In this document: one piece after another, positions 7,042 through 7,947 of the stretch
Position numbering within the stretch: the stretch's first letter is position 1
Layout: the number at the start of each line of letters is the position of its first letter
Virus record (IMG/VR): IMGVR_UViG_647533158_000006
Length of the DNA: 49,773 nt
Direction: 5' to 3' (one strand)
From: a virus
Taxonomy: Duplodnaviria > Heunggongvirae > Uroviricota > Caudoviricetes
Translations under genes and position numbers: made by a program
The notes under the pieces: model-generated
Databases searched by the model: none
The model's input: only the letters and a program-made list of their open reading frames with translations
Told to the model about the DNA's origin: nothing

Positions 7042-7446
7042 AATTATCTCCATTTTTACAAATGAACTTTGTTGATGCGGCGCCTGGTGCCTCCAGGTGA
7101 CTGCAACCAGTTAACAATTACAGTCGGCTTTCCCACCCAAACCAATAAGGACTAACATGACTTTTAACTGTGCCGCGTGCGCTTAGCCGCATTCACCGCA
7201 TCACAAAATTCACTTTAAAAAGGGCGGACATCAGTCGAACTTCAAGAAAAAACTGATGCCGCCAAGACTACACACAGCAGTGTTGTTATTCACAACCGGA
7301 GGCGCACTCCCACCATTTAAATTTAACAGACAAGACCGACTCTTTATGGATATCGGAAATGCGCCTTCGTGTTGTATGCCTGTCTTTTTACCACTTCAGG
7401 CTCGGTGGTATACTGGAGTTTCCACACAACCAGTAGGGAATTACTT

Positions 7447-7680
7447 ATGCCTATTCAATCTCAACACAAAAATATTGATTATCTTTCCGCCAGATTAGAG
7501 GCTACCGCGCTTGTTCTTGAAGAACTTGTTAAACTTCTTACGCCAGAGCAGCGTGAAAAACTGAATCTGGCAATTGCCGGGCGTTGCCCAGGCGTGAAAA
7601 ATGCGTCTCTCAGGAATAGAAATTCTCCCGCATATCAATTATTACAGTTCATCAATGATGGCGTCGGCAGCAGCGATTAA
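7447..7680 (+). CDS. Hypothetical protein (77 aa from MPIQSQHKNIDYL)
   Basis: Track ORF 7369..7680; internal ATG preceded by a GGGAA-type ribosome-binding site and an extended -10-like TGGTATACT; 3' end overlaps the convergent gene. Confidence 0.45.
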   Translation: MPIQSQHKNIDYLSARLEATALVLEELVKLLTPEQREKLNLAIAGRCPGVKNASLRNRNSPAYQLLQFINDGVGSSD

Positions 7681-7947
7681 TTTTTCTAATGCCTCTTCGA
7701 CATGATAATTGTATGGTTGTAGTGACCTGAAATCTGCAATTGCATCAGCCAGGTTTCGCGCCATTACGGCTGGTGCGATTTTTTTTGCTGCTGATACCCG
7801 GCTGGCGAGTTCCAGTGCGAGACGTGCCTGCCCTGGAGTTAACTCTCTTTCCTTTGCCATTGTTGATGCCTGTACAGACAATTCATACGCCAGACAAAAA
7901 ACAGCATTATTCGTTTCTAGCGGATCAATACCCTGAGTAAATGTCAT
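7642..7947 (-). CDS. Hypothetical protein (101 aa) downstream of the repressor gene on the same strand
   Basis: Track ORF; alanine-rich helical composition; sits where cI-cotranscribed exclusion genes lie in lambda. Confidence 0.5.
   Translation of the reverse strand: MTFTQGIDPLETNNAVFCLAYELSVQASTMAKERELTPGQARLALELASRVSAAKKIAPAVMARNLADAIADFRSLQPYNYHVEEALEKLIAAADAIIDEL

Follow-up and report, generated by a model that had tools for sequence, protein, structure and literature searches.

Among the described systems closest to the locus considered here are the superinfection-exclusion modules sieB-esc-sas of phages P22 and lambda (PMC12197685, PMC13397905, PMC10461980). In P22, the sas RNA switches the translation of sieB, and P22 thereby escapes its own exclusion (PMC12197685). 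The same RNA, which was sequenced from infected cells, begins opposite the start codon of sieB, in antisense, and has a conserved element at its end (PMC13397905). The locus lies in a stretch of 49,773 nucleotides (nt) of Caudoviricetes DNA, IMG/VR record IMGVR_UViG_647533158_000006 (the whole of which is referred to as the window), where a 77-amino-acid (aa) open reading frame (ORF) on the plus strand and a 101-aa ORF on the minus strand overlap at their 3' ends. Judging from sequence comparison, this gene pair appears to be uncharacterised cargo in a shortened sieB/sas-type cassette. With slightly better than even confidence, we propose that the region corresponds to the promoter-proximal end of a Rac-like prophage's early-left (pL-type) operon, equipped with an accessory cassette in the sieB slot, and that the cargo of this cassette would be expressed in the lysogen and silenced by an antisense RNA derived from pL.

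The window represents a Rac-like lambdoid prophage. Its minus strand encodes, in leftward order, an HTH_3 repressor, the 101-aa ORF, kilR, ydaE, a racC-like gene and recE, while a P22_Cro/YdaS-like gene and a YdaT-like gene lie on the plus strand and diverge from the repressor (Table 1). The coordinates assigned to the two ORFs in an earlier, sequence-only reading agree with the program-made ORF list, in which the ATG at 7447 gives 77 aa and the plus-strand ORF ends at 7680. The mutual antisense relation that it had described is likewise borne out, the shared segment being the 39 nt from 7642 to 7680. These are in codon-aligned antisense, and the TAA stop of either gene reads as a TTA Leu codon of the other. 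The 101-aa gene is preceded by a Shine-Dalgarno (SD)-like sequence, GGGGAGAG. In a set of 13 distinct E. coli versions, the ratio of nonsynonymous to synonymous polymorphism (pN/pS) is 0.15 for the 77-aa ORF and 0.34 for the 101-aa ORF, in each case the lowest among the sense frames; the former value is equalled only by the codon-aligned antisense frame (0.155), and the latter has a modest margin under the next frames (0.42-0.44). Across six divergent loci, only the annotated frames can be read free of stops. Both RefSeq and phage Rac-SA53 annotate the products as hypothetical proteins, named rac10 and rac11 in Rac-SA53, and a literature search on these two names found nothing relevant. The results confirm that both overlapping ORFs are real, uncharacterised prophage genes.

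Table 1. Features of the early-left region of the window (positions are those of the whole stretch).
Feature	Position	Strand	Basis and remarks
kilR, FtsZ inhibitor	6820..7041	-	NCBIfam PRK11354, E 3e-48; PHROG 294; RefSeq annotation of L001; downstream early-left gene
Structured kilR leader, STnc100/PasD-like	7042..7216	-	Holds hairpin 7083-7097
KilS small RNA orthologue	7217..7313	-	K-12 Rac kilS b4833 maps here (7313..7217); sequence and synteny
Candidate sas-like antisense element	7372..7450	-	Anti-SD/anti-start region, covarying stem-loop and 3' domain ACCACCGAGCCUGAAGUGGUAAAAAGACAGGC
Predicted extended -10 promoter of the 77-aa gene	7387..7414	+	TTTACC-16-TGgTATACT
77-aa gene	7447..7680	+	sieB slot, strand opposite to pL; predicted three-helix protein, no family match
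101-aa gene	7642..7947	-	First gene downstream of pL; predicted all-helical, no family match
Predicted intrinsic terminator of the 77-aa transcript	7756..7786	+	Inside the 101-aa coding sequence; U-run corresponds to its KK codons
51-aa ORF	7944..8099	-	Judged spurious; covers pL promoter, operators and leader
Predicted pL-like promoter	8020..8071	-	-35 TTGACC 8048-8043, 17-nt spacer, -10 TAAATT 8025-8020 (promoter scan); two operator copies
Prophage repressor, HTH_3, 135 aa	8136..8543	-	Pfam HTH_3, E 1e-16; its likely operators flank pL and pR

The gene that lies opposite to pL in lambda, P22 and Rac, between the first early-left gene, with which it converges, and the kil/ral side, is sieB. 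The 77-aa ORF occupies this position in the window, and thus it is this ORF, not the 101-aa gene, which holds the position of an exclusion gene. The window is homologous to K-12 Rac as far as ~7375, so that a cassette spanning 7376-7981 replaces sieB-ydaF-ydaG. The predicted extended -10 promoter of the 77-aa gene hardly varies, either between genera or between loci with unrelated ORFs downstream. The predicted terminator of its transcript is a one-way signal composed of a hairpin of -17.6 kcal/mol and T8; it is found at the same position in Salmonella L002 (-18.4 kcal/mol) and also in L001, is weaker in Pantoea, and is absent in Yersinia, Enterobacter and L010. Since the 77-aa gene has its own promoter and its transcript would end inside the 101-aa gene, ~365 nt (7421-7786) of the two transcripts would be complementary.

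The ~65-75 nt upstream of the small gene are nearly invariant in six genera, though the proteins themselves are only ~50% identical. In the window, the ~75 nt preceding the 77-aa gene are a shortened form of the sieB upstream region of lambda, P22 and Rac. The first half of the element also precedes sieB in lambda, P22 and K-12 Rac, with the common core ACCACCGAGCCUGAnGUGGUnAAAAGACAGGC. A 26-mer of the cassette was located in 60 IMG/VR contigs, before at least 10 unrelated ORF types of 55-104 aa, and its distance to the start codon of the downstream ORF is always 28-43 nt; a convergent minus-strand partner is frequent. The element is carried by 133 phage records, and no known function was found for the other classes of cargo ORF behind it. 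In one IMG/VR locus (L035; cassette and +400 to +1500), the same cassette precedes a 75-aa cargo and lies, in another arrangement, beside a cro-like gene and an S24-type repressor gene. Its occurrence is thus not limited to the side of pL. What is new here is this conserved promoter/antisense-RNA cassette, reused for many unrelated small genes, which we consider the most interesting lead of the analysis.

The minus strand of the cassette contains a candidate sas-like antisense element, whose 3' domain ACCACCGAGCCUGAAGUGGUAAAAAGACAGGC aligns with the 3' end of the sequenced P22 sas RNA (PMC13397905 Table 2) and, on the basis of its sequence, could form two hairpins or a pseudoknot. In an alignment of 21 versions, 91.4% of cells are paired in a common structure made up of a stem-loop by the anti-SD region and two stems of the 3' domain, versus 85.8% in shuffles, none of the 500 shuffles being as good, although the structure was derived from the same sequences on which it was scored and most of the 3'-domain pairs never vary. 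Five pairs are altered on both sides in this alignment; compensatory changes in the stem-loop are found in the Salmonella, Klebsiella and SfII versions. On the minus strand of the window (7372-7405; alignment columns 34-65), the two conserved stems, CCAC/GUGG and GCCUG/CAGGC, are interleaved, with an A-rich loop after them, an arrangement typical of an H-type pseudoknot. Both interleaved stems are retained in K-12 Rac with other sequences (CCACC/GGUGG and GCCCGG/CCGGGC). A minus-strand RNA is favoured because the -10 box and the 5' arm of the covarying stem overlap, so that this arm, as judged from the predicted start site, would lie outside the mRNA.

The promoter from which such an antisense RNA would derive is predicted between the repressor gene and the 101-aa gene. 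A 14-bp palindrome, TTGAGAAAACTCAA, is present in three copies (8021-8034, 8058-8071 and 8594-8607), and the 13/14-mer TGAGAAAACTCAA is found at 8059-8071 and 8595-8607 and, inverted, at 8022-8034. The first two palindrome copies bracket the leftward promoter. The third, beside cro, is located just after the -10 box of the rightward promoter pR (TTGACT-18-TAATAT) and covers its start region. The 135-aa repressor likely uses this palindrome as its operator. In 18 E. coli genomes that encode other repressors, homology to the window extends no further than 7981, and the prophage L041, which has the same repressor and another cassette, nevertheless keeps the segment 7950-8100. The corresponding interval of L001, Pantoea L007 and Yersinia L008, which represent three further immunity types, includes operator-like repeats particular to each, and a strong terminator directly follows the repressor gene in L001 and Pantoea L007. 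The 51-aa ORF that crosses this segment in the window had no family match (Pfam, PHROGs, NCBIfam), is unannotated in related genomes and is probably not a gene.

Because an operator-flanked leftward promoter intervenes, and because the operator repeats and terminators of the other immunity types concur, we regard the 101-aa gene as the first gene of a pL-type operon and not as a passenger of the rexAB kind. The sequence-only reading had placed it directly downstream of the repressor gene on the same strand, in the slot of exclusion genes cotranscribed with the repressor; its position was correct, but with a promoter at 8020-8071 in between, its sequence context does not support cotranscription with the repressor in the manner of rexAB. 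With the pL-like promoter upstream of the 101-aa gene, it follows that a pL transcript which reaches KilS, the leader, kilR, ydaE and recE would run antisense through the 77-aa gene.

Both protein families are tiny. The 101-aa family has six direct matches and seven cluster representatives among 1.84 billion, and the 77-aa family has 18 matches in a profile search; no member of either is named or contains a Pfam domain. Neither the two proteins nor the 51-aa ORF had a match above noise in scans of Pfam, PHROGs, NCBIfam and PADLOC, and the profiles of known anti-phage defence and toxin-antitoxin families (PADLOC, Pfam, NCBIfam) did not match the pair. Together with the cluster searches, this bears out the earlier remark that neither protein falls into a recognisable family. 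A weak match to LTXXQ (E value 0.08) was rejected, as were profile matches to PDB sequences, which comprised only designed helical proteins and are thus compositional; among the matches listed from a small-protein profile scan of genome contigs, there were only spurious ones in unrelated metagenome-assembled genomes. The AlphaFold2 model of the 101-aa protein has four helices and a predicted local distance difference test (pLDDT) score of 58, too uncertain for a fold search. That of the 77-aa protein has three helices (pLDDT 76), and a Foldseek search with it against PDB and BFVD returned no match better than an E value of 0.3.

The two genes are co-inherited, and the convergent overlapping pair is also found in Salmonella Hull, Pantoea, Yersinia enterocolitica, Enterobacter ludwigii and one metagenome contig, with 42-69% protein identity. 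The overlap is 39 nt in the Salmonella, Pantoea, Yersinia and metagenome loci and 42 nt in Enterobacter; in a distant locus of the small family (L029), the overlap with the partner is 36 nt. As the same overlap of 39-42 nt recurs in these five loci, the convergent arrangement is not due to chance. Every gene of the small family is paired with the C-terminal module of the large family, even where the N-terminal half of the partner is unrelated (L010, L029), and part of this linkage is explained by the physical overlap, which alone forces co-inheritance of the last 13 codons. Among 5426 complete E. coli genomes, the pair is present in 18 and the short cassette in 70. In Yersinia (L008, 3414-4790), the pair lies between an S24-type repressor gene and an N-like antiterminator gene (PF26859), which would make N the third gene of that left operon.

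Taken together with the predicted signals, these observations suggest the following sequence of events for the proposed early-left operon. In the lysogen, pL would be off, and the 77-aa protein would be made from its own promoter, as SieB is. Upon induction or infection, transcription from pL would traverse the 101-aa gene before crossing the small gene in antisense, occluding the promoter of the latter. The pL transcript would also yield a sas-like RNA masking the SD sequence and the start codon of the small gene, leading to its shut-off, and would go on into KilS, the leader and kilR. More speculatively, the 77-aa protein might be an exclusion or host-modifying factor that the prophage expresses and that would impair lytic growth of the phage itself; the 101-aa early protein may then counteract it in the way that Esc counteracts SieB. 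The functions of both proteins are inferred only. It would be a much bolder claim, and one that we hold to be improbable as a whole, that at least six enterobacterial genera share a plug-in cassette of the sieB slot, in which an extended -10 promoter on one strand is combined with a sas-type antisense RNA, perhaps with a pseudoknot at its 3' end, on the other, that the hypervariable, small and unannotated cargo of this cassette is on in the lysogen and silenced by pL, and that the 77-aa and 101-aa proteins are a split SieB/Esc-like pair of exclusion factor and early antidote.

If the cassette works in the way described, it would constitute a general slot for accessory genes which are expressed in the lysogen and which temperate phages must silence for lytic growth. 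The conserved element of ~33-75 nt would then be a sequence handle for finding many small uncharacterised prophage proteins, these cargo proteins would be candidates for exclusion, defence or host-modifying functions, and the single example of P22 sas would be widened to a family.

Several points weigh against the proposed silencing of a sieB-slot cargo by pL. All promoters, start sites and terminators described here are predictions. The 77-aa protein has no significant BLASTP similarity to the SieB proteins of Rac, lambda and P22 and no PHROG or Pfam match, no membrane segment was found in it, and an Esc-like internal start is lacking, since the gene has no internal ATG and only one GTG, at codon 50. 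A promoter scan of the window detected no separate minus-strand promoter for a sas-like RNA, and the RNA would therefore need to be processed from the pL transcript. Some of the single-sequence variants are more compatible with plus-strand than with minus-strand pairing, and the near-identity of the cassette could be due to frequent recombination instead of selection. In Salmonella Hull and L010, the pair is not beside the repressor gene but after the replication and Q-like genes. The genes preceding the large gene in these loci (L002/L003, 1800-8400, and L010) are cro/ydaT, replication genes and a Q-like antiterminator gene, all co-directional into it, which suggests a rearranged prophage.

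With regard to the partnership of the two proteins, L036 has a full-length homologue of the 101-aa protein (BLASTP) beside an unrelated small ORF, with no overlap, and in the Salmonella variant L004 the large gene is intact and the small gene disrupted. Thus, the two proteins are not obligate partners. The existence of the L036 type, in which a full-length homologue (BLASTP) pairs with an unrelated ORF, was also the reason for dropping strict covariation of the C-terminal half of the large protein with the small ORF. In L004 (6300-7450), an insertion of ~1 kb takes the place of the promoter and 5' half of the small gene, whereas the large gene is identical, so that this variant is a natural knockout of the small gene.

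Some of the evidence on the cassette would also be expected if there were no functional coupling, i.e., if the cassette served only as a portable promoter or, where mosaic segments meet, as a recombination linker, while the small ORFs were ordinary morons with no relation to each other and the 101-aa gene was just another early gene, likewise unrelated. A linker of this kind would account for the many unrelated ORFs and the several arrangements in which the cassette is found, for the mosaic joints at ~7375 and 7981, for the stem pairs of the 3' domain, most of which never vary, and for the near-identity of the cassette across loci, which recent exchange would also give. It does not, however, account for the presence of the same element within an experimentally detected antisense RNA of P22, for the compensatory stem-loop changes in the Salmonella, Klebsiella and SfII versions, or for the extent of the conservation, which includes the promoter spacer and the leader and goes beyond the needs of a sigma-70 promoter. 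We consider an absence of coupling unlikely.

Somewhat less likely still is a self-contained toxin-antidote or abortive-infection pair, in which the 3' overlap, convergent transcription and cleavage of the duplex by RNase III would set the ratio of the two proteins with no involvement of a sas-like RNA. The overlap length conserved across five genera would fit such a pair, as would the terminator inside the coding sequence of the partner, which produces ~145 nt of 3' complementarity, and the association of every small-family gene with the C-terminal module of the large family, even with an unrelated N-terminal half (L010, L029). This association is, on the other hand, forced for the last 13 codons by the overlap itself, Yersinia, Enterobacter and L010 lack the terminator, and PADLOC and the toxin-antitoxin families provided no match. 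Moreover, the large family also occurs apart from the small family and with no overlap (L036 type), and in L004 the large gene is intact beside a disrupted small gene.

Downstream of the proposed antisense element, the pL-type operon would continue into the region upstream of kilR, which had been described as a non-coding stretch of ~390 bp. Indeed, no credible protein gene is present in 7054-7446, but the stretch is not empty, as it includes three elements at the RNA level. From 7054 to ~7375 it is ~97% identical to K-12 Rac, and it contains an orthologue of KilS, an Hfq-associated small RNA (sRNA) demonstrated by RIL-seq and northern blot (PMC8175672). Each of the alignment blocks with K-12 KilS has 47-50 of 50 identical positions. 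The 3' half of the sRNA (7222-7276) is DicF-like, with an intrinsic terminator and a fold z-score of -3.5. The Rfam DicF model (RF00039) scores 42.8 bits here (E value 3e-7), under the gathering score of 48, as compared with 39.1 for K-12 KilS and 76.7 for true DicF. As is the case for DicF, the sRNA is placed in the early-left operon upstream of a division inhibitor and ends in an intrinsic terminator. A loop-restricted comparison, used since full-length RNAduplex was uninformative, predicted no pairing of the sRNA loop with the ftsZ ribosome-binding site (-9.2 kcal/mol, z +0.3, versus -14.6 kcal/mol, z -2.2, for DicF). In the Salmonella KilS/DicF-like copy (L002, 6560-6720), the terminator hairpin is kept while the stem and loop sequences differ (GGCGGUACCAG...CUGGUAUCCGCC). 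From these sequences, the KilS/DicF-like family appears to vary its loop between hosts.

Between KilS and kilR, the structured leader has a minimum free energy of -62.1 kcal/mol (z -4.1) and a full-length match to the Rfam STnc100 model (RF02076; 32.2 bits, E value 2e-4), under the gathering score of 47; the PasD/STnc100 family has been described in bioRxiv 10.64898/2026.05.13.724894. The leader arrangement recurs in K-12 Rac and in the dicF-dicB spacer of Qin. The short GC hairpin at 7083-7097 is one arm of the conserved multi-helix fold of the kilR/dicB leader (CCNGG-AGGCA-CCNGG), and in Salmonella it exhibits the compensatory change of CCTGG/CCAGG to CCGGG/CCCGG. The start of kilR is most likely the second ATG, at 7041, which gives 73 aa as in K-12 and RefSeq, and not the one at 7053. 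A GGAG inside the longer reading (7041-7053) would be the SD sequence of the 7041 start. In toto, the non-coding stretch is already known biology, namely a KilS/DicF-like sRNA and a conserved kilR/dicB leader.

The same hairpin had been taken for a nut/boxB-like or terminator element. As a terminator it has no U-run and is instead an arm of the leader fold common to K-12 Rac and Qin; as a nut site it has no boxA (at most one mismatch, 7000-8100), its loop AGGCA is not GNRA-like, and no N-like ORF lies between pL and kilR. Thus, the model which combines such an element with a rexAB-like 101-aa gene cotranscribed with the repressor in the lysogen is very improbable and largely refuted: it can draw on the location of that gene downstream of the repressor on the same strand, on the lack of a strong terminator after the repressor gene in the window and on the boxB-like geometry of the hairpin (5-bp stem, 5-nt loop), but it is at odds with the operator-flanked promoter between the two genes, with the strong terminators right after the repressor gene in L001 and Pantoea L007 and the separate operator repeats of each immunity type, with the absence of similarity to RexA/B, with the missing U-run, the unsuitable loop, the lack of boxA within 1.1 kb and of an N-like gene between pL and kilR, and with the conservation of the hairpin within a larger fold in the Qin and Rac leaders.

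Compared with known systems, the 101-aa gene resembles rexAB of lambda in being located between the repressor gene and the region equivalent to N, on the strand of the repressor. It differs in that rexAB lies upstream of pL and is cotranscribed with cI, whereas the 101-aa gene is downstream of the pL-like promoter and has no sequence similarity to rexAB. The antisense pair formed by lambda oop RNA and the 3' part of cII is similar insofar as a phage early gene faces a short convergent transcript that is complementary to its 3' portion, but in the window the convergent transcript codes for a protein and lies in the left operon. The dicB operon of Qin (ydfABC-dicF-dicB) has in common with the present region the repressor-controlled leftward small ORFs, an sRNA bearing a terminator, a structured spacer and a division inhibitor, and the spacer and its hairpin are homologous. 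Unlike DicF, the sRNA here has another 5' part and loop and lacks a predicted pairing with ftsZ, and the inhibitor is KilR in place of DicB.

K-12 Rac, with the order kilR, kilS, sieB(+), ydaF(-), ydaG(-), racR, has the same order and strands as the window, and its kilR leader and KilS are ~97% identical. The genes sieB and ydaF of Rac are also convergent, with an overlap of 4 nt, but in the window the 77-aa and 101-aa genes stand in for sieB, ydaF and ydaG. In P22, sieB(+) faces gene 24(-), and the promoter and transcription start of sieB are annotated. The convergent genes are 20 nt apart in P22 and abut in lambda (sieB/N), as compared with the overlap of 39 nt found here. With respect to the sieB module itself, the cargo in the window is unrelated, a soluble protein of 77 aa in place of the membrane-bound SieB of 162-192 aa, it has no internal start for an Esc product, and the cassette is ~45 nt shorter, with the -10 box directly after the conserved element. 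In both, nevertheless, a gene opposite pL converges on the first pL gene (in lambda this is N and in P22 gene 24), has a promoter of its own and is preceded by an element with homology to the sas 3' domain, and an antisense RNA would be expected over the ribosome-binding site.

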